Part shown: positions 1-32,000 of the stretch, piece after piece | How positions within the stretch are numbered: position 1 is the first letter of the stretch | Layout of the letters: each line of letters begins with the position of its first letter | NCBI GenBank assembly: GCA_021650915.1 | Contig: CP091279.1 | Location: forward strand, 3,900,001-3,932,000 | Reading direction: 5' to 3' | Source of the DNA: Candidatus Brocadia sp. | GTDB taxonomy: Bacteria; Planctomycetota; Brocadiia; Brocadiales; Brocadiaceae | Length of the DNA: 32,000 bases | Notes under the pieces: generated by a model | Database searches by the model: none | Told to the model about the DNA's origin: nothing | The model's input: only the letters and a program-made list of their open reading frames with translations | Translations under genes and position numbers: made by a program

Positions 1-630
1 TTGATTCATTTTTTTATTCACGTCCCAGATCAATTCCCGGATTTCATGACCGGTCCTGGTATCCAGGTTACCCGTAGGTTCGTCACACAACAATAATTCC
101 GGATTATTAATCAACGCCCTTATGATGGCCACCCGCTGCCTTTCACCGCCAGAGAGTTGAGAAGGCTTGTGCGTTATCCGGTCCCCCAGACCCACTTGTT
201 TCAGCAAAGAAATCGCCCGGTCGGTCTTCCCTTTCGCCGCCGCTCCTCCTTTTAAAAACCTGCTCCCAATAAAGCAGGGCAGCAAAACATTCTCTAAGGC
301 AGTAAAATCAGGCAGGAGATGGTAAAATTGGAAGACAAAGCCAAAAATGCAGTTTCGCATATATGCCTGTCTCTTTGCGTTTAATTCCGTAAGATTTATC
401 CCCTTGTATAGAACGGAACCGGACGTTGGCGTATCTAAAATCCCCAGAATATGCAATAACGTGCTTTTCCCGGCGCCAGAGGCACCCACAATTACGACAA
501 TCTCACCTTTTTTAACGGCTAAATTAATCCCTCGCAAGACAGGCACAGCGCGTTCTCCATTCGTGTATTCCTTGACTAAATCTTTGGCCTGTAAGAGCGT
601 CCCGTTATTTACAATATTCTCAGATACCAT
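1..630 (-). CDS. ABC transporter ATP-binding protein, LolD/MacB-like; its C-terminal end lies beyond the window edge
   Basis: Absent from the ORF track because it is open at the edge. Reverse-strand translation from ATG 630-628 (alternative 636-634) is open down to nt 1: [22 protein letters not shown]... It has Walker [13 protein letters not shown] signature [15 protein letters not shown] and Walker [13 protein letters not shown]. Confidence 0.9.
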
Positions 631-1782: not shown

Positions 1783-3816
1783 TTACAATACTATCCTCAC
1801 GTCACCCGTCCTTTTGGTAAAATGGATGGCATCGAGATACTCGAGCAACGGGACGGCATATTTACGGGTAGTCCTGATCAGATCTCTGAATTGCGCCACA
1901 CTCATAGGGCCGTTTTTGGCGACATGATCCCGAACCAGTTCCTTTATTTTGTTCAGTATCGTTGCGTGAAAATAGAGACCATTCTCAATCATAATGAGCT
2001 TCTTTTGTTCTGCCAGCAACGAGATGGCGGCCTTGCCAGAAGCGCCGAATTTTGTGACGACCTCTTCCGCAAAAGGCGGGGTGAATCCGGCCTTGAGAAA
2101 GGCCTCTTCAATTTTATCTGCCGCGCCCTTGTCTCTTGCTGATACTTCGAGTCTAAAATCCATGAGCGAAAGCTTATTATCCGTAATTTTAATCGCTTTT
2201 TCGTTCTTCAGAACGGAGAGGGCTGCGGTAAAGAGAAATGGATGAAGCTCTTCCCCAGAAATTGATTTCGGACGGGATTCTCCAGCCCTCGCTTTTACCT
2301 TTTTTAGCGCAGGCAGAAGGCCTGTGGCTACCGACGTCCGGAGTTGAGACTCCTCAATCCCTGTTTTTACCGGATTTTCCTTATGAAATGCCTTAAGGGT
2401 ACTCAATATCTGTTCCTTGACAGCGGCAATAACATCACGATGAACAACAATGTCCTTGCCCTCAACAAGAAATTTCAGAAGCAGCCCCTTCTTTACTAGC
2501 CCCGCTATAGCGTCCTCAGCAGTTGAAGGATGAATATTCACCTGTCTTGAAACATCATCAACGGTGGGGGCAAACGGCCGTTCGTCCCTGCAAACGTGGA
2601 TATTATTCAAATAAACCTGTTCTACGATATCAGGAAGATTGCCGCTGGCAAGAATTTTCAGGGTCTTAATCGTCTTTTCCTGAAAGCGTTTTAATCGGGT
2701 TGTATTGTACCTCAGAACCTTGCCGCCGCCGATGGTGTAGGCCGGTGAGTAGGAACGGATAATGAAACGATCTTCCCGCTCGGTGGTAATAAGATCTTCC
2801 AGGAGAACTTGACACAAGACCTCTTCGCCGGGTTTCAACGCATCCCGGTCCAGCAGAACAACTCTGCCCATCACCTCAGCGGTATTCAGGTAAAACCGTA
2901 TCCTTGCCCTGTTTTTTAAAACGGTTTTTGCACTTTTTATCAACCGTAGCAAGGCATCAATGGCGCTCGCCGGCTGTAAGTATCCAGGAACGGAGAGTTC
3001 ATAGCCGCGTTGTATTTCAGCGGATTTAACGCCTGCCAAATTGAGCGCTGCTCGTTGCCCTGCAAAGGCCGAAGTGACCCGTTCTCCGGTTACCTCAATT
3101 CCCCGTACGCGTAAGGCCTTTTTCGTGGGTAAGAGTTCTATTTCATCCTCCACGGCAATCTGGCCACCCAGAACAGGGCCGGTAACGACGCATCCATATC
3201 CGGGAATGGTGAAAGACCGGTCGATGGGCATCCGGAACACACGGCGACTGCTCTGAGTCTGTGCCCGGGCAATCAGCTCTCTTATCGCCGTCTCACAGGT
3301 CTCAATCCCTTCGCCCGTGACTACCGATACCGGGATAATCGGGGCATGCTCCAGGGATGTGCCCGTTACCGTCTTTTTGATATCCTCCTGCACAACCGCC
3401 AGCCATTCATCAGTGACGAGGTCCTTTTTCGTCAGGGCAATAATGCCGTGTCTGATGCCCAGGAGGTTTATGATCTCCAGGTGTTCGATGGTTTGCGGCA
3501 TAATGCCATCATCAGCCGCAACAACGAATATTACGAGGTTAATGCTCGTTGCGCCCGCCAGCATGTTCTTGACAAACCGTTCGTGTCCTGGTACATCCAC
3601 GATGCTCACCCTGCGGTTTTCATTGAGGTCGAGATAGGCGAAGCCCAAATCGATGGTCAATCCCCTTTTCTTTTCTTCGGGCAGCCGGTCGGTATCGATC
3701 CCCGTCAATGCCTTCACGAGGGACGTCTTTCCGTGGTCAATATGCCCCGCCGTTCCGATGATAATGTGCTCGATGTGGTGTGCGCCAGTTGGTTGTTGTA
3801 AGGATGCCTGTTTCAT
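1783..3816 (-). CDS. selB: Selenocysteine-specific translation elongation factor SelB
   Basis: 677 aa. The N-terminal GTPase has GHIDHGKTSL, DVPGHERF and TKKD motifs, followed by EF-Tu-like domains II/III and a long C-terminal extension typical of the SelB winged-helix SECIS-binding region. Confidence 0.92.
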   Translation of the reverse strand: MKQASLQQPTGAHHIEHIIIGTAGHIDHGKTSLVKALTGIDTDRLPEEKKRGLTIDLGFAYLDLNENRRVSIVDVPGHERFVKNMLAGATSINLVIFVVAADDGIMPQTIEHLEIINLLGIRHGIIALTKKDLVTDEWLAVVQEDIKKTVTGTSLEHAPIIPVSVVTGEGIETCETAIRELIARAQTQSSRRVFRMPIDRSFTIPGYGCVVTGPVLGGQIAVEDEIELLPTKKALRVRGIEVTGERVTSAFAGQRAALNLAGVKSAEIQRGYELSVPGYLQPASAIDALLRLIKSAKTVLKNRARIRFYLNTAEVMGRVVLLDRDALKPGEEVLCQVLLEDLITTEREDRFIIRSYSPAYTIGGGKVLRYNTTRLKRFQEKTIKTLKILASGNLPDIVEQVYLNNIHVCRDERPFAPTVDDVSRQVNIHPSTAEDAIAGLVKKGLLLKFLVEGKDIVVHRDVIAAVKEQILSTLKAFHKENPVKTGIEESQLRTSVATGLLPALKKVKARAGESRPKSISGEELHPFLFTAALSVLKNEKAIKITDNKLSLMDFRLEVSARDKGAADKIEEAFLKAGFTPPFAEEVVTKFGASGKAAISLLAEQKKLIMIENGLYFHATILNKIKELVRDHVAKNGPMSVAQFRDLIRTTRKYAVPLLEYLDAIHFTKRTGDVRIVL

Positions 3817-6113
3817 GGCTTTTGATATTTGTTTGCCTTATCGGCAGAAAGATCAGCGTTAAACCTCGACACAAAGACGTCCTCGCATCTATCGTAAGAC
3901 GTATCGTAAGCGCCTGGTGTAACGGGAAAGTCTGTTGACAAAGTTTCTCCGGCCACATAGACGTTTCCCGCAGCGCTGACGGCAAGTGCATGGCCATAAT
4001 CAGAACGAGACCCGCCCTGAAGTGTGGACATGAGCAAATTCGTCAGTTCGCTGTTAAACTTCGATACAAAGACCTCACTACCACCGTTCGACGTGGCAGC
4101 ATAAGCGCCCGGTGTTGTGGGAAAATCCGCTGAGCTCGTACTGCCTGCCACATAGACGTTTCCTTCGGCACCGATGGCAACTGCCCTGCCATAATCATGA
4201 GCATCCCCACCTAGGAGTGTGGATGCGGCCAGACTTGACAATTGATTGTTGAACTTCGAAACGAAAATATCCTTAAAGCCGCTTTTGTAGGCGGCAGCGT
4301 AAGCGCCCTCCGTCGTGGGAAAGTTTGGCGACACCGTTTCACCTGTCACATAGACGTTTCCACTGCCATCGATGGCAATTGACTTGCCAAAATCATTAGA
4401 ATACCCACCGAGAAACGTGGATGCCAGCAGGCTCGTTAGCCCATTATTGAGACTTGACACAAAGACGTCGTCATTGCCACCGTTATAAGAGATACTATAA
4501 GCGCCGGGCGTTGCGGGAAAGTCTCTTGGCCAGGTATTGCCGGTAACAAAGACGTTTCCAGCGCCATCGACGGCAATCGCTCTCCCATAATCACCGGAGC
4601 TGCCGCCTAGGAACGTGGACGCCAGCAGGCTCGTTAGCCCACGGTTGAACTTTGCTACAAAGACGTCACAATAACCGCCGTTGTAAGAGGTGTCGTACGC
4701 GCCAGGCGTCGTAGGAAAATCAGTTGATGAGGTCTCGCCGGTAACCGTGATGTTTCCACCGGTATCAATGGCAATTGCATAGCCACAGTCATCTGCATTT
4801 CCGCCCAGAAGCGTGGACGCTATCAGGTTCGTCAGCCCGTTGTTGAATTTCGACACAAAGACATTCCAACGTCCGTTACTGATCGCATCATACGAACCTC
4901 GCGTTGTGGGAAAGTCCGTTGAATACGTAGCTCCTGCCACATAGACATTTCCTTCGGCGTCGATGGCAATTGAGCAGGTGCGTTCGTGATTGAGAGCCCC
5001 TCCTAGGAACGTGGACGCCAGCAGGTTCGTCAGCTCACTGTTGAACTTTGACACAAAAACGTCGGTATTGCCATTCCGGGATGTACGATAGACACCTGGC
5101 GTCGTAGGAAATTCAGACGATAAGGTTTCGCCGGCCACAAAGACGTTTCCCTCTGCGTCAACGGCAATTGCCCTGCCACGGTCTTCATAAGGACCGCCCA
5201 GGTAGGTGGACGCAAGGAGGGGATCGATAATGAGATCTTTTGTTTTGTCGTACTGCGCAACCTGAAAACCATATTCCGATTTCGGATCTTGGACTTCGGA
5301 TTTCAGATTTGTTTTGCGCTTTGCATTCCTCATTCCACCATCCGCAATCGTATACTTACATGCCACCTCCACTCTCTTGCCATCAATATCTTGATATGCT
5401 ACGGGTCTTGTAAACTTCACGGCGCCAAGTTCCGTCTCTGCAACAAGCTCGCCCTCCGTGTTTACCGTCAATTCCTGCGCGCCTGCCAGTCTGATTCTTA
5501 TCTTCTCATGGTTTGCGCCGGGTTTTACCGTAAAAAGTTTCTCTACGTTATTTCCATGCGCCTTCAGTCGTAAGTCTATCCCTTCATATATCTCTCCCAT
5601 TTCGACAATCTCATACGTTGGTATATTGCTCTGCCAGTGTGATAGGTCATTTCCGGTAAAATAATTTACGGTGGCTACGGATTTCGACCCACCCTTGGCT
5701 TCATTAATCTTGCCGCCCACGAGTTGTTCTTTAAGGGCAACGCCCCTTACATCCTGCACCAGGTGATTTTGTGTCTGATTCCCCCGCCGATCCTTTGTCC
5801 CTTCACATCCATGCCTGCCTTCCGGCAATGCATAGACGATCTCCCCATCCTTGTTCACAAACACCGTTCCGTCAAAGGTCTGCGCATAAAAAAGCACCCT
5901 TTCATCAACCTGACCATAATTGGCTATAAAAGGCGCTTGAACCTTCTGAACTTTAAGGGTTACTGTTTTCTCCAAGAACTTGCCTGTATTGCCTTGTTCA
6001 GCGAAAAGTGACGCTACCGCTAATGGTATCGTTGAGAGAAAAAAAGAAAAGATCGCCATATAACAAAGAGCGCTACCTGCATGAAATACACGACTGCGAG
6101 ACAAGTTTCCCAT
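3813..6113 (-). CDS. Secreted SBBP (beta-propeller) repeat protein
   Basis: 766 aa. It has an N-terminal hydrophobic signal/anchor (AIFSFFLSTIPLAVASLFA), an approx. 270-aa unique domain, and then seven approx. 65-aa repeats of the form LLASTFLGG..DyGrAIAVDaeGNVYVAGeTsStDFPTTPGAY....DVFVSKFN..LT. Confidence 0.85.
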   Translation of the reverse strand: MGNLSRSRVFHAGSALCYMAIFSFFLSTIPLAVASLFAEQGNTGKFLEKTVTLKVQKVQAPFIANYGQVDERVLFYAQTFDGTVFVNKDGEIVYALPEGRHGCEGTKDRRGNQTQNHLVQDVRGVALKEQLVGGKINEAKGGSKSVATVNYFTGNDLSHWQSNIPTYEIVEMGEIYEGIDLRLKAHGNNVEKLFTVKPGANHEKIRIRLAGAQELTVNTEGELVAETELGAVKFTRPVAYQDIDGKRVEVACKYTIADGGMRNAKRKTNLKSEVQDPKSEYGFQVAQYDKTKDLIIDPLLASTYLGGPYEDRGRAIAVDAEGNVFVAGETLSSEFPTTPGVYRTSRNGNTDVFVSKFNSELTNLLASTFLGGALNHERTCSIAIDAEGNVYVAGATYSTDFPTTRGSYDAISNGRWNVFVSKFNNGLTNLIASTLLGGNADDCGYAIAIDTGGNITVTGETSSTDFPTTPGAYDTSYNGGYCDVFVAKFNRGLTSLLASTFLGGSSGDYGRAIAVDGAGNVFVTGNTWPRDFPATPGAYSISYNGGNDDVFVSSLNNGLTSLLASTFLGGYSNDFGKSIAIDGSGNVYVTGETVSPNFPTTEGAYAAAYKSGFKDIFVSKFNNQLSSLAASTLLGGDAHDYGRAVAIGAEGNVYVAGSTSSADFPTTPGAYAATSNGGSEVFVSKFNSELTNLLMSTLQGGSRSDYGHALAVSAAGNVYVAGETLSTDFPVTPGAYDTSYDRCEDVFVSRFNADLSADKANKYQKP
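3848..5219 (-). repeat. Seven tandem SBBP coding repeats (approx. 195 nt each)
   Basis: Periodic recurrence of GNVYVAG / DFPTTPGAY / VFVSKFN blocks in the translated ORF. The matching DNA-level recurrence includes gacgtttcc and tttcgacacaaagac. Confidence 0.8.
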
Positions 6114-27742: not shown

Positions 27743-27844
27743 TATACACTACAAAGCGGGATTACAAGGAGTATAAATAGATAGGGGCAAATTAAGCATA
27801 AAGGCATATTGGCAAAGCGTCATGTAGTGTATACGATATGCACT

Positions 27845-29341
27845 ATGAGCTTTATACGGAGGATAAAACGAGGAGCCTCAATTTACCTAGCCGAGGTAGA
27901 AAATGTAAGAGTAGGCGGCAAGGTTATCCAGAAGCATATCCGGTATGTGGGTAAAGAAGTAGCTGATACACCGATTTTAACAGGGTCGGTGGCGAATTCC
28001 ACGATAGATCGGGTGACAATCTATGGTCCCTTATTGATGTTAGACGAGATCGCAAGACAAATTGATTTATCTGGTATATTGGGGGAATATGGGGACTATT
28101 TGTTGAGCTTGGCCTATGCTCATTGCATTTCGCCAGATAGTTTAACGGGGATGGCAGATTGGTATCAGAAGACCGAGATGGGTAGTCTTCTTTCTCTTTC
28201 CGATGTTACGTACAAGAAATTGATCGAGGCAATCGATTCGGTAGAGGGGATGAAAGGGGCGGAGATTCAAGGGCAAATATTTGGACGTTTAAAAGAGAGT
28301 TTAAATCTATCGGCGAAAGGGTATTTTTACGATATTACGAGCATCTATTTTTACGGGGTATGTTGTCCTCTGGCCAAGCGCGGGCATAATGCGGAGGGGA
28401 GGAAGGAACGGCAAATTCAGGTTGGATTAGCGGTAACGCAGGGGGAAAGGATTCCAATATTTCACAAAGTATTTGAGGGAAACATCTTTGATGCGAGGAC
28501 ACTGCCGGACATTCTTCTTCATCTTAGAGGTCAGCATATCAAGGACATCTGTATTGTATGGGACCGAGGAGTTTCTTCTCAATTGAACATCAAAGAAGCC
28601 AAAGAGATGGGATTTGAAGTGTTATGTGGGCTAGCGTTGAAAGGAGATTTAAAGAAGGTTGCCGATCACGTTCTGGGGGAGGATATCATCTCCATGAAGC
28701 AGAGAGTAAGACTTCAGAATGCCACCTTCTATGTGAAGAAGAAACGGTACCGGATAGACGGGATTGATGGATATCTTGCCGTTTGTCTTAACGAGAAAGA
28801 AAAGCAGGCGATTCGCGAGAGGAGATATGACGAGATTGATCATGCCCTCCAACAGATCGGTCAGAACAAGGATATCCGCGAGGGGCTGAAGAAATATATA
28901 AGCGGGAATAAGGCCAATTACAAGTCTTTGACATTGGCAGGGCGCTATGACGGAATATCGGTAATCTTCTCGGCGAGGAATCTCAGTGAAAAAGATATGA
29001 TCAGGGGGTATTTTGAAAAAGATACCGTAGAGAAATCCTTCCGATGTATGAAAAGCCTTTTAGAAATGGACAAGGTAAGGTTCTGGCTAACTAATCGAGT
29101 CAAGGGACATATTTTTGTTTGCTATCTCGCCTATTTACTTCTCTCTGTCCTTGAATACAGACTTAAGAAAATAGGAATAAAGGCAACTGAGGCAATAGAA
29201 ACCATGGAGTCGATGTGTCGAGTGTACATCACCGATCCAAAATCAAAAAACAGATTCGTAAAAACAGTAACTCTGAGTAAAAAACAAGAAGACATCCTAA
29301 GGGAAATTAATCCGCATCTCTTGACAAAGTGTAATGTGTAA
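27845..29341 (+). CDS. IS1634/IS4-family DDE transposase (second, unrelated copy); element ends not defined
   Basis: Intact ORF. Reads MSFIRRIKRGASIYLAEVENVRVGGKVIQKHIRYVGK, YFYDITSIYFYG, IVWDRGVSS, and a C-terminal YLAYLLLSVLEYRLKK. The track's TTG start at 27809 is less likely. Confidence 0.8.
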   Translation: MSFIRRIKRGASIYLAEVENVRVGGKVIQKHIRYVGKEVADTPILTGSVANSTIDRVTIYGPLLMLDEIARQIDLSGILGEYGDYLLSLAYAHCISPDSLTGMADWYQKTEMGSLLSLSDVTYKKLIEAIDSVEGMKGAEIQGQIFGRLKESLNLSAKGYFYDITSIYFYGVCCPLAKRGHNAEGRKERQIQVGLAVTQGERIPIFHKVFEGNIFDARTLPDILLHLRGQHIKDICIVWDRGVSSQLNIKEAKEMGFEVLCGLALKGDLKKVADHVLGEDIISMKQRVRLQNATFYVKKKRYRIDGIDGYLAVCLNEKEKQAIRERRYDEIDHALQQIGQNKDIREGLKKYISGNKANYKSLTLAGRYDGISVIFSARNLSEKDMIRGYFEKDTVEKSFRCMKSLLEMDKVRFWLTNRVKGHIFVCYLAYLLLSVLEYRLKKIGIKATEAIETMESMCRVYITDPKSKNRFVKTVTLSKKQEDILREINPHLLTKCNV

Positions 29342-29451: not shown

Positions 29452-29480
29452 TTGACACAACAAACATGGCATGATAAACT
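29452..29480 (+). promoter_or_regulatory. Candidate sigma70-type promoter for glyQ
   Basis: TTGACA (29452-57), a 17-nt spacer, then TAAACT (29475-80), about 78 nt upstream of the glyQ ATG. Confidence 0.3.
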
Positions 29481-29557: not shown

Positions 29558-30457
29558 ATGACCTTTCAGGAAATTATCTTAAAACTGCAAAATTACTGGG
29601 CTGATTACGGCTGTGTACTCTGGCAACCCTATGATATGGAAAAGGGCGCCGGCACGTTTAATCCTGCAACATTCCTGAGGGCGCTGGGTCCTGAACCGTG
29701 GAAATGCGCTTATGTAGAACCCTCACGGCGTCCAACTGATGGCAGATACGGAGAAAATCCCAACCGATTACAACATTACTATCAATTCCAGGTAATCATA
29801 AAACCCGCCCCTGATGATGCGCAGGATATTTATTTAAACAGCTTGCGGTTTTTAGGCATTGATCTGGTGAAACACGATGTGCGGTTTGTCGAAGATGACT
29901 GGGAATCCCCTACCCTGGGCGCTACGGGACTTGGCTGGGAGGTATGGCTGGACGGCATGGAGGTTACGCAGTTTACCTATTTTCAACAGGTAGGCGGTTT
30001 TGAACTTGAACCAATCACCCTTGAGCTTACTTACGGACTCGAACGCATCGCCATGTTCATCCAGGAAAAAGAATCGGTATTCGATCTTGAATGGGTCAAG
30101 GGCTACACTTACGGCGATATCCACAAGCAGGACGAAGTCCAGTTTTCCACCTATAATTTTAAAGTTGCAGACACGACCATGCTTTTCCAGCTCTTTGATG
30201 CATACGAAAAGGAATGCCAGCGACTGCTCAAAGAAGACCTGGTGTTGCCCGCCTATGATTACGTTTTAAAGTGCTCACACACGTTTAATCTGTTGGATGC
30301 CCGCGGGGCTATCGGAGTCACCCAGCGTACTGGTTATATCGGAAGGGTAAGAAACCTCGCCCGACGCTGTGCCGAAAGTTACGTCCAGTTGCGCGAGACG
30401 CTGCATTGGCCGCTACTAAAGGAATTCAAGGCGAAAAAATATGAATACGCGGAATAA
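29558..30457 (+). CDS. glyQ: Glycine--tRNA ligase alpha subunit
   Basis: 299 aa. Reads [48 protein letters not shown]...[27 protein letters not shown], the canonical GlyQ sequence pattern. Confidence 0.95.
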
Positions 30458-30869
30458 CCATAATTGCGCAGGTTTGCGTTACATAGACTTATTCTGTGGA
30501 ATCGGAGGATTTCGCCTTGCTATTGAAGATGTTTGTCGAAAAAATGGCGTCCAAGCAGAGTGCGTTTTTTCATGTGAAATTGACGAAGAATGCCGCAAGT
30601 CGTATTTGGCAAATTTCTCTGATTTACCTCATGGTGACATTACACAAATTTCCGAAAAGGCTGTTCCGGATCACGAAATTTTGCTCGCCGGCTTTCCATA
30701 TCAACCTTTTAGCATTATTGGCAAAAGAAAGGGGTTTGAGGACACAAGAGGCACTTTGTTTTTTGATATTGCCCGAATAATACAGGCAAAACAACCGACT
30801 GCATTTGTGCTGGAAAACGTTAAACTTCTTTCTGGGCATAATCAAGGAAAGACCTTGGTGACATGTTAA
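30441..30869 (+). pseudogene. DNA (cytosine-5) methyltransferase, N-terminal 142-codon remnant with catalytic Cys replaced by Tyr
   Basis: Motif I is DLFCGIGG. Motif IV reads GFPYQPFS instead of GFPCQPFS (TAT at 30699-30701). Motif VI ENV is present. Motifs VIII-X and the target-recognition domain (TRD) are absent. Confidence 0.85.
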
Positions 30870-30919
30870 CGGAGTTTAAAGTCGGTGAAAAATACACAAA
30901 TGATTAGATTCGCTTTGCA

Positions 30920-31858
30920 TTGAACGTAGAAAATTTGGGTGGTATTCGTCCTTCTGTTGATGCAAACAAGAATCTTAACCATCTTGTTATATTAACTACA
31001 ACAGAGCAGTATGCGAAAAACATAGCAGAAAATCCTTACCATGACAGGATCGAAAACAACATACTAATTTACACGGCGCAAGGAAGAACTGGCGATCAAG
31101 AAATCAGCGGTAGGAACAAAAGGATTATTGAACAATACTCTGCGCCAATTCCTTTTTATGGCTTTTCAAACGAAGGAAGACAAAAATATACATTTCCTGG
31201 ATTGCTTGAGCTTCTTCGCCATTTCCAAGAATATCAGATAGACAAAAAGAATATCTTAAGAAAGGTTTGGGTTTTCGAATTTTACATTCATGACGAAATA
31301 CCAACAGTTCCTATCCAAAATGCAAAAGACTTAATTGTTGCAATATTTAAGGAATCAAGAAAAATCCGCGAAATAGAGAGAGAAGAAAGAGAAGTCATTT
31401 TATCTGAAGTTCAACAAAAAGTTTATGAAACTGCAAATTGTGAAACAGAAGAAATTCGTTCTTATCTTCTTCGTATTAATCCGTATCGTTTTGAATTTCT
31501 TGTAAAAGATGTAGTTGCGTCGAATGGTTTTATAAATGTTACCGTGACGACTCCTTCACAAGATGGAGGGATTGATGTAAATGGATATGTTGCAGAATCT
31601 AATTACTTTTTCTCTAGGACGCATGTTCAATTCCAGGTAAAACGTTGGCGTCATTCTGTGGGCAGTGTCGAAATTAACAATTTCAGAGGTGCGCTGCACA
31701 CAACCGCAAAAGGGATATTTGTGACTACAAGCCACTTTACGAAGGCTGCAATGCAAGAGGCAGAACATTCTGTCAAACCTTGCATTTCACTTATCGATGG
31801 ATTTAGGTTTTCAAAACTCATAAAAGACACTGGAATAAACATAAACAAATATCTGTGA
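30920..31858 (+). CDS. Type IV (modification-dependent) restriction enzyme: SRA-like N-domain + Mrr-cat nuclease domain; native N-terminus is cut off by an amber codon
   Basis: The C-terminal domain is Mrr-like: FEFLVKDVV..GFINVTVTTPSQDGGIDVNGY...VQFQVKRW...FRGAL...GIFVTTSHFTKAA...ISLIDG. The N-terminal domain follows an SRA-type pattern: GGIRPS..LVILTTT..Y.D....ILIYTAQGRTGDQEISGRNKRII. An in-frame ATG at 30863 is followed by TAG at 30905-07. Confidence 0.75.
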   Translation: MNVENLGGIRPSVDANKNLNHLVILTTTEQYAKNIAENPYHDRIENNILIYTAQGRTGDQEISGRNKRIIEQYSAPIPFYGFSNEGRQKYTFPGLLELLRHFQEYQIDKKNILRKVWVFEFYIHDEIPTVPIQNAKDLIVAIFKESRKIREIEREEREVILSEVQQKVYETANCETEEIRSYLLRINPYRFEFLVKDVVASNGFINVTVTTPSQDGGIDVNGYVAESNYFFSRTHVQFQVKRWRHSVGSVEINNFRGALHTTAKGIFVTTSHFTKAAMQEAEHSVKPCISLIDGFRFSKLIKDTGININKYL

Positions 31859-31903
31859 GGTCTTATGACTAAAAAGCACTGTGATGAAAAATGAGACTGC
31901 TAT

Positions 31904-32000
31904 ATGTGTGGCAAAGAAACCGTTTCACAACTCACTCCTGGAGGGTGGTTGGGCAATTACCATCCGCTCTGTGACCCATGTGCGGATTCTATCTTTCTCG
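31904..32000 (+). CDS. Partial ORF, possible small zinc-ribbon protein (runs off the window)
   Basis: Reads MCGKETVSQLTPGGWLGNYHPLCDPCADSIFL..., with a C-x-x-C pair preceded by CYMC. This is very weak evidence. Confidence 0.15.
   Translation, partial: MCGKETVSQLTPGGWLGNYHPLCDPCADSIFL

Follow-up and report, generated by a model that had tools for sequence, protein, structure and literature searches.

Modification-dependent nucleases are thought to compete with restriction-modification systems that methylate DNA, on evidence that is mostly experimental or anecdotal. For the relatives of one such nuclease, MspJI, Zheng et al. (2010; PMC2938202) found that about half adjoin genes for a 5-methylcytosine (5mC) methylase and Vsr, and they proposed both that such neighboring methylase genes decay and that the endonuclease gene (R) itself evolved modification dependence. 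In Streptococcus pneumoniae, according to PMC3812788 and PMC3573125, strains carry either the DpnI or the DpnII system, one or the other. Here we describe a locus in a 32,000-nucleotide stretch of the genome of Candidatus Brocadia sp. (contig CP091279.1, positions 3,900,001 to 3,932,000; called the window below), in which the remnant of a methylase gene, dcm', is followed by the gene of a predicted modification-dependent nuclease and by a zinc-ribbon open reading frame (ORF), Zn63. We read this locus, with a probability of about 0.78, as a wrecked type II 5mC operon for a methylase (M), an endonuclease (R), and Vsr (V), the middle of which was replaced by a nuclease-Zn63 cassette that has since decayed.

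The nuclease resembles MspJI and AspBHI, its best structural matches, in joining an N-terminal SRA-like domain, a predicted 5mC reader, to a C-terminal Mrr-like nuclease domain of the D...QxK type; unlike them, it belongs to a distinct compact family of 324 to 342 amino acids without a significant sequence match. In contrast to the proposals in PMC2938202, the nuclease cassette replaced the M/R junction within the operon, and the locus is not a case of mere methylase decay nearby. As with DpnI and DpnII, the space between shared flanks is taken up either by a methylating restriction-modification system or by a nuclease that depends on methylation (here a predicted one). The loci compared below have two gene contents between near-identical flanks, and cassette and flanks differ in their histories. 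The cassette mechanism of the pneumococcal pair reportedly goes back to Lacks et al. in 1986. The modification, however, is presumably 5mC here and N6-methyladenine (6mA) there, and the shared flanks are remnants of restriction-modification genes (M on the 5' side, R and vsr on the 3' side) instead of neighboring housekeeping genes. Moreover, the present pattern, seen in sequence comparisons, spans many phyla and several operon families and not one species. The remnant itself recalls M.HhaI-type type II operons with Vsr, being M.HhaI-like and having intact relatives of the order M-R-Vsr; it differs from them in that the window keeps codons 1 to 142 of M only, with tyrosine at the catalytic cysteine, and in that the partner, a 245-amino-acid protein, has no sequence match to R.HhaI or HinP1I. 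The literature searched held no description of an in-operon replacement or of alleles from before and after one. In-operon cassette replacement thus appears to be undescribed so far, the neighborhood of MspJI-type, methylase, and vsr genes being already known.

Replacement of the operon core by a nuclease cassette

Loci related to that of the window have a common layout, in which a methylase stub is followed by the nuclease gene, Zn63, an open frame of ~171 codons, and vsr. The ~171-codon frame corresponds to residues 71 to 245 of a family of 245-amino-acid proteins (3469 matches); that it might be a complete small gene was rejected, as the family shows it to be a 5'-truncated fragment. Intact compact operons exist as well and consist of M (334 to 365 amino acids), the 245-amino-acid protein (R), and Vsr. 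Compared with these, the nuclease-Zn63 pair stands in for the 3' ~60% of the M gene and the first 70 codons of R.

Two pairs of loci present the alleles before and after this exchange. Between L151 (intact) and L104 (converted), the left flank is 99.2% identical (474 nt) and the right flank 99.0% identical (991 nt), and in L104 824 nt are gone, with 1216 nt of cassette instead. Between L155 (intact) and L101 (converted), the flanks are 98.7% (left) and 98.6% (right) identical, and 954 nt have given way to 1218 nt of cassette. In either pair the right junction falls on one and the same nucleotide, at R codon 71, although identity is only 68% between the intact L151 and L155 operons and 82% between the two cassettes. 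These four loci are unbinned metagenome contigs, each without an assigned species; in the species of the window, only the cassette allele was seen. The window itself stops at position 32000, and the R fragment and vsr of the species were read in sister strains only. The comparison with related genomes that the preliminary description of this DNA had suggested thus yielded both intact M-R-Vsr operons and intact homologs of the nuclease. The replacement itself, documented by the paired alleles, is established, as are the domain identities and the recurrence in other operon families treated below.

The left junction is less uniform. Its length differs slightly among related loci, and the last methylase codon retained in relatives ranges from ~40 to ~150, a spread that subsequent deletions could explain. 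The coordinates of all features in the window are collected in Table 1.

Table 1. Features of the window at and around the wrecked operon (positions are those of the 32,000-nucleotide stretch)
Feature	Position	Strand	Remarks
Transposase gene (insertion sequence)	27809-29341		510 amino acids, DDE_Tnp_1
Promoter-like site	29452-29480		sole site of the promoter scan
glyQ (glycyl-tRNA synthetase alpha)	29558-30457	+	Pfam tRNA-synt_2e, E 4e-151
dcm'	30441-30869	+	142 codons; 5' remnant of an M.HhaI-like C5 DNA methyltransferase gene
Motif I of dcm'	30486-30512	+	DLFCGIGGF
TAT, Tyr87 of dcm'	30699-30701	+	PCQ to PYQ; aligns with M.HhaI catalytic Cys81
Motif VI of dcm'	30813-30821	+	ENV
Left junction	30853-30862	+	~10 nt from last methylase-derived codon (GKT, near 30852) to nuclease ATG; compared with L151 and L104/L014
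Nuclease gene	30863-31858	+	331 codons; predicted modification-dependent (type IV / IIM-like)
Stop codon of dcm'	30867-30869	+	TAA, overlapping the nuclease ATG (ATGTTAA)
SRA-like reader domain	nuclease residues ~1-165	+	fold match
TAG, nuclease codon 15	30905-30907	+	CAG in homologs and sister strains; specific to one haplotype
Longest remaining nuclease ORF	30920-31858	+	TTG start 12 nt after TAG; 312 amino acids
Mrr_cat PD-(D/E)XK domain	31469-31822	+	nuclease residues 203-320; Mrr_cat E 2e-22
Zn63 zinc-ribbon ORF	31865-32000, runs off window end	+	CxxC...CxxC; 63-64 amino acids in relatives
Premature TGA, Zn63 codon 10	31892-31894	+	TGG in L096/L098; Trp in homologs

The 245-amino-acid protein is presumed to be an endonuclease, mainly by its position between M and Vsr. 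It has no match beyond chance in Pfam, NCBIfam, PADLOC, or PDB sequences; the best chance-level matches of the fragment are Pfam NOD (E 0.03) and PADLOC Specificity_I (E 0.014). For its AlphaFold2 (AF2) model, with a predicted local distance difference test score (pLDDT) of 81, the best folds are weak matches: NhoI (E 0.02), HinP1I (0.16), and DpnI (0.26).

On this reading, the starting state would have been a compact operon of an M.HhaI-like methylase, the 245-amino-acid presumed endonuclease, and Vsr, and the cassette would have displaced the region running from roughly M codon 139-150 up to R codon 70. Its nuclease would read flipped 5mC with the SRA-like domain and cut with the Mrr-type domain. 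A single replacement would then have removed the methylase together with the endonuclease belonging to it and put in a nuclease that cuts methylated DNA, leaving the methylase stub 5' of the new gene with overlapping frames (ATGTTAA). Later the cassette decayed in the species, through an amber codon here, through an insertion of 98 bp resembling a miniature inverted-repeat transposable element (MITE) and subsequent deletions in sister strains, and through an opal codon in Zn63.

The methylase remnant and its tyrosine

The preliminary description had regarded dcm' as a 142-codon Dcm-type remnant with motifs I, IV, and VI and with tyrosine at the catalytic cysteine, and this assignment is confirmed. 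The remnant matches profile positions 2-123 of 324 of Pfam DNA_methylase (PF00145, E 9e-46) and TIGR00675 dcm (E 7e-50). Its top match among solved structures is M.HhaI, residues 8-133 (E 8e-44, 55-60% identity), and residues 4-154 of an intact 365-amino-acid methylase are 62% identical to it. Motif I, of the FxGxG type that binds S-adenosylmethionine, aligns with M.HhaI, and motif VI is kept. In motif IV, GFPYQPFS of dcm' aligns on GFPCQAFS of M.HhaI, the check on Cys81 that had been proposed, and the catalytic cysteine is thus absent. All related methylase fragments have PCQ, dcm' alone having PYQ, and TAT is present in 10 of 10 strain sequences of the species (L092-L099, L007, and the window). 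Everything past about M.HhaI residue 136, i.e., motifs VIII-X and the target recognition domain, is missing, and a custom Dcm hidden Markov model found no further Dcm sequence in the window.

From the changes in both genes it had been concluded that an intact methylase and an intact 5mC-dependent nuclease met here and that their clash was settled by the Cys-to-Tyr change and the amber codon separately. The idea of incompatibility behind this conclusion stands: both changes are real single transitions, and an intact writer and cutter rarely coexist, only 3 of 24 methylase neighbors of the nuclease family being full length. The history of two point mutations in intact neighbors, however, is very unlikely. 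About 60% of the methylase is missing through cassette replacement, as the alleles before and after show, so that it was truncation and not the Cys-to-Tyr change that disabled the enzyme. The same truncation with the cysteine intact is found at related loci in Zixibacteria, Nitrospirae, and Deltaproteobacteria. Furthermore, every strain of the species has Tyr87, but the amber codon belongs to a set of recent knock-outs that differ between strains. Because the same truncation occurs with an intact cysteine at loci of other phyla, the Cys-to-Tyr change most likely arose afterwards, when the fragment had already lost its function. Assembly errors do not account for TAT or for the TAG of the nuclease gene, because separate assemblies (L007, L096, and L098) carry them.

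Two further interpretations of the stub were abandoned. The number of nonsynonymous substitutions per site (dN) separating the window stub from other stubs, 0.24-0.28 compared with ~0.07-0.14 among most of them, was considered as a sign of relaxed selection; this was rejected because in this species the R fragment and vsr have diverged to the same degree, which indicates a diverged operon lineage. A family of stand-alone methylase stubs, suggested by a homolog list made up of short proteins only, was dropped as unreliable, because the word-index search may favor short sequences and many matches are cut by contig ends. Methylase stubs were therefore analyzed at the level of loci in place of the protein homolog list.

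The nuclease and its amber codon

The gene behind dcm' had been assigned to an SRA-like/Mrr-cat nuclease, and both domains were recovered. The C-terminal domain is a clear match to Mrr_cat (Table 1), and D234, D238, and Q258-V-K260, which make up the D...(Q/E)xK signature, do not vary within the family; the window copy retains them all. For the N-terminal half, there are sub-threshold Pfam matches only, to RE_AspBHI_N and SRA_ScoMcrA; RE_AspBHI_N reaches 16.5-18.5 bits on the family against a cut-off of 27 (E 2e-3 to 7e-3). A profile of the nuclease run on PDB sequences reached MspJI with an E value of 0.68 in the nuclease domain only, and no NCBIfam match was obtained. An AF2 model (pLDDT 80) was made of the intact homolog P0002, which is 92% identical to the window nuclease. 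With Foldseek, both domains of this model matched AspBHI (4oc8, E 5e-14) and MspJI (4f0p, E 8e-14), and the N-terminal domain matched the 5mC-binding SRA domains of SUVH5 (TM ~0.7), ScoMcrA, and UHRF1. The homolog search with the nuclease gave 869 matches, nearly all of ~331 amino acids, and clustering at 50% left about ten full-length clusters, all of 324-342 amino acids. Judged by the modeled fold, the nuclease is of the MspJI/AspBHI type, yet it forms a compact sequence family of its own that is uncharacterized biochemically.

All 15 of the 15 aligned homologs share the Met start and have Gln at the position of the TAG codon. Since every one of them has Gln there, TAG at codon 15 is a single C-to-T step from CAG; it is a real nonsense mutation that inactivates the gene, in agreement with the preliminary description. 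The latter had also placed the TAG codon, the TTG at 30920, and the overlap of the dcm' end with the ATG at 30863 correctly. Recoding of the stop codon in the window was rejected, as TAG ends three other long ORFs and no tRNA genes were found in the window.

It is very doubtful that the window nuclease still works, be it by read-through of UAG or as the TTG-initiated product. Such a function would fit a frame that is intact save for codon 15 and keeps every invariant residue, with an in-frame TTG just past the stop. Against it speak the absence of recoding just described and the structure: the TTG product lacks 19 residues that hardly vary and that fold into the first two strands of the reader domain and part of its helix 1 (pLDDT ~95), and this product is probably inactive. 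No Shine-Dalgarno-like sequence was seen before the TTG on reading the sequence. In addition, the gene is broken by an insertion and by deletions in sister strains, one of which has lost it, and this suggests that the nuclease is dispensable or harmful in the species.

Recent decay of the cassette in the species

Sister-strain loci (L092-L099) were retrieved via the stub protein. One sister assembly, GCA_002050315.1, figures in a list of anammox genomes, and the species is probably an anammox bacterium. In these loci, in L007, and in the window, glyQ is followed by the identical Tyr87 stub, and the cassette behind it differs. The window and L007 have TAG at nuclease codon 15, no 98-bp insertion, and TGA at Zn63 codon 10. 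L096 and L098 likewise have TAG and no insertion, with TGG at Zn63 codon 10. The loci L093, L095, L097, and L126 have CAG at codon 15 (not read in L126), the 98-bp insertion, and TGA in Zn63. L094 has CAG, the insertion with an adjoining deletion, and TGA; L092 has CAG and the insertion, with everything downstream lost, including Zn63. In L099, codon 15 and the insertion are unreadable owing to a run of N, and Zn63 has TGA.

The 98-bp MITE-like element occupies positions 8555-8656 of L093, L095, and L097, corresponding to a site after window position 30994 within the nuclease gene. Its inverted ends are CGTCTCATAAT and ATTATGAGAC, with an apparent TA duplication as read from the sequence, and the deletions in L094 and L092 begin at the element. 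No copy of it is present within the window. Among strains that are ~99.5% identical, the nuclease gene was thus disrupted at least 2 times independently, and the knock-outs are recent and polymorphic. The suggestion that the nuclease was knocked out in answer to the adjacent methylase does not survive this comparison: the methylase was long dead, and being already a stub, it cannot have caused the knock-outs. Candidate causes are a 5mC methylase elsewhere in the genome or a simple loss of benefit. The scan for a second C5-methylase, which covered the window and up to 8 kb on each side of the sister-strain loci, found none.

The Zn63 ORF lies 3' of the nuclease gene in all clade A loci, and the window copy is 70% identical to the ORF of L001 (tblastn). 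It has no family match in NCBIfam, Pfam, or PADLOC and no structure match. With the amber codon in the nuclease gene, the opal codon in Zn63, and the truncated methylase, it is likely that nothing in the window from 30441 to 32000 is functional now.

Neighborhoods of the nuclease family

A survey covered 80 species-representative genome loci of the nuclease family, with neighbors within 1.5-2.5 kb. Methylase, endonuclease, or Vsr sequence of some kind is found near the nuclease in 54 of the 80 loci, with Vsr in 37, an endonuclease gene (245-amino-acid type or DUF4928) in 22, and methylase sequence in 24. The 24 methylase neighbors comprise 18 N-terminal fragments, 3 C-terminal fragments, and 3 that are apparently full length, which upholds the earlier impression that writer and cutter are incompatible. 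The 21 fragments derive from at least four unrelated methylase lineages and have varied break points. N-terminal stubs are present in 18 of the 80 loci in any position or orientation, and in 14 of them directly 5' on the same strand; with the lineages of the window, L001, and L010 added, a stub lies directly upstream in 17 distinct loci. At some loci a truncated vsr abuts the nuclease gene instead of a methylase. A C-terminal methylase fragment plus vsr directly 3' of the nuclease was found in two loci and an N-terminal vsr fragment directly 5' in another. In these loci with other break points (L024 5995-6480, L039 6010-6534, and L027 4694-4957), the cassette has thus come to lie at several distinct sites within the operons.

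In a second operon family (L015 3916-6913, L118, L114, L117, L120, and L121), a full-length DUF4928 gene with a dN/dS of ~0.1 (dS, synonymous substitutions per site) adjoins the nuclease and a methylase that is truncated. A type II endonuclease model of PADLOC fits DUF4928 with E 1e-41 to 2e-49, and a PDB sequence search with a DUF4928 protein gave chance matches only. In L009 (6015-7253), two tandem 5'-truncated DUF4928 copies follow the nuclease (profile 134-306 and 95-306; 38% identical).

The survey also bears on the idea of mere co-location, in which the nuclease would have landed by chance beside decaying restriction-modification genes in a defense island. Defense genes do cluster, and some of the loci hold toxin-antitoxin pairs and other methylases. 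But the M and R genes are themselves interrupted by the break points, intact operons match the flanks at 99% identity, it is 5mC operons in particular whose parts are present at the 54 loci, and the junction nucleotide is identical in diverged operons; chance proximity is therefore the least probable of the explanations considered, and a highly improbable one.

Some loci depart from the common picture. In L029 (5001-7133) and L051, the nuclease lies immediately upstream of an apparently intact C5-methylase, with PPCQGFS, ENV, and GNAVPP present; because of these two loci, coexistence of the nuclease with an intact C5-methylase appears possible, presumably with non-overlapping specificities. 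In L046 (482-2911), a near-complete C5-methylase frame, broken only near motif X, forms one 810-codon open frame with the nuclease; the two may be fused, or the frame may be open by chance, the DNA being GC-rich. The region of L001 at 2210-5401 resembles a defense island, where an N6/N4 methylase and, behind it, a 268-amino-acid ORF occur together with a ParE/Phd toxin-antitoxin pair.

Different histories of cassette and flanks

The cassettes of L014 and L107 are identical save for 1 of 1188 nt, whereas their flanks differ at 33 of 1366 nt, and the DNA beyond this 2.7-kb unit is unrelated. Their flank differences are mostly synonymous, with a dN/dS of 0.07 for dcm' and 0.13 for the R fragment. 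Across many pairs, methylase stubs and R fragments both have dN/dS values of 0.04-0.15, and dS is discordant between modules. A 5'-truncated gene is implausibly under selection; the flanks would therefore have diverged while they were still working genes. The simplest reading of these sequences is that the flanks had already diverged when the cassette came into related operons or moved between them, and we infer that it spreads between related operons via recombination in the retained M and R/V sequences. A bolder extension, possible but tentative and in our estimate somewhat less probable than its opposite, is that nuclease-Zn63 is a self-propagating "operon-killer" cassette that recombines via the kept M and R (or vsr) stubs into intact operons of new hosts.

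The low dN/dS values could also be taken to mean that the stub is conserved and translated because it serves the nuclease as a partner; it might regulate it, inhibit it in the manner of an antitoxin, or act as a leader for translational coupling. The recurrence of same-strand upstream stubs, the stop/start overlap ATGTTAA, and values of 0.03-0.15 even in the close pair L015-L119 (dS 0.19) would suit this role. The 5'-truncated endonuclease fragment, however, has an equally low dN/dS, and the near-identical intact alleles explain the low values of both fragments. Stubs range from ~40 to ~150 codons, carry frameshifts or stops in L001, L010, L018, and L021, and are absent from many loci, and the catalytic cysteine is lost in the window. 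A role as partner is thus unlikely, and we keep to the view that the stubs are leftovers of replaced operons.

Surroundings of the wrecked operon

The glyQ gene forms the left border, its stop codon overlapping the ATG of dcm'. In all strains of the species, the wrecked operon lies directly behind glyQ; in the window, glyQ has no glyS after it. The insertion sequence transposase gene located just 5' of glyQ is also found in L096. The only promoter-like site of the scan lies 5' of glyQ, and none was found between glyQ and the nuclease ORF. Because L007 has a different transposase-like ORF after the Zn63 region, the strain of the window is probably rearranged downstream of position 32000.

Discussion

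Several points weigh against a replacement as outlined above or limit it. A newly converted cell would still be fully methylated and still hold R protein, and its survival is not accounted for. The 5mC dependence of the 331-amino-acid family is predicted from the fold only, and its similarity to MspJI and AspBHI lies below family thresholds. The endonuclease label of the 245-amino-acid gene comes from its position and from weak fold matches (E 0.02-0.3). The R fragment and vsr are not inside the window and are known from sister strains. With regard to the spread of the cassette, the flank identity of 66-74% between distant operon lineages is low for classical homologous recombination, and in L101 the resident-type sequence begins right at the junction; a long-lived polymorphism with homogenization of the flanks is an alternative to repeated invasion. 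Finally, an endonuclease without its methylase should be lethal, yet a full-length DUF4928 endonuclease gene often persists beside a truncated methylase, which the simple model does not cover.

For the annotation of the genome, the consequence is that all genes in 30441-32000 are to be marked as pseudogenes. For the nuclease family, the compact 331-amino-acid SRA-Mrr proteins and their constant 63-amino-acid partner are candidates for epigenetic tool enzymes. In the paired alleles, with their 99% identity, the core of a 5mC operon is seen to have been physically exchanged for the cassette, an event that recurs in several operon families and phyla, and this suggests why MspJI-like enzymes so often adjoin methylase and vsr genes. 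If the cassette does propagate itself by invading intact operons, this would provide a mechanism for the long-known proximity of MspJI-type enzymes to genes for methylases and Vsr, and it would be direct genomic evidence that, across phyla, type IV systems are at war with type II systems at the level of genes.

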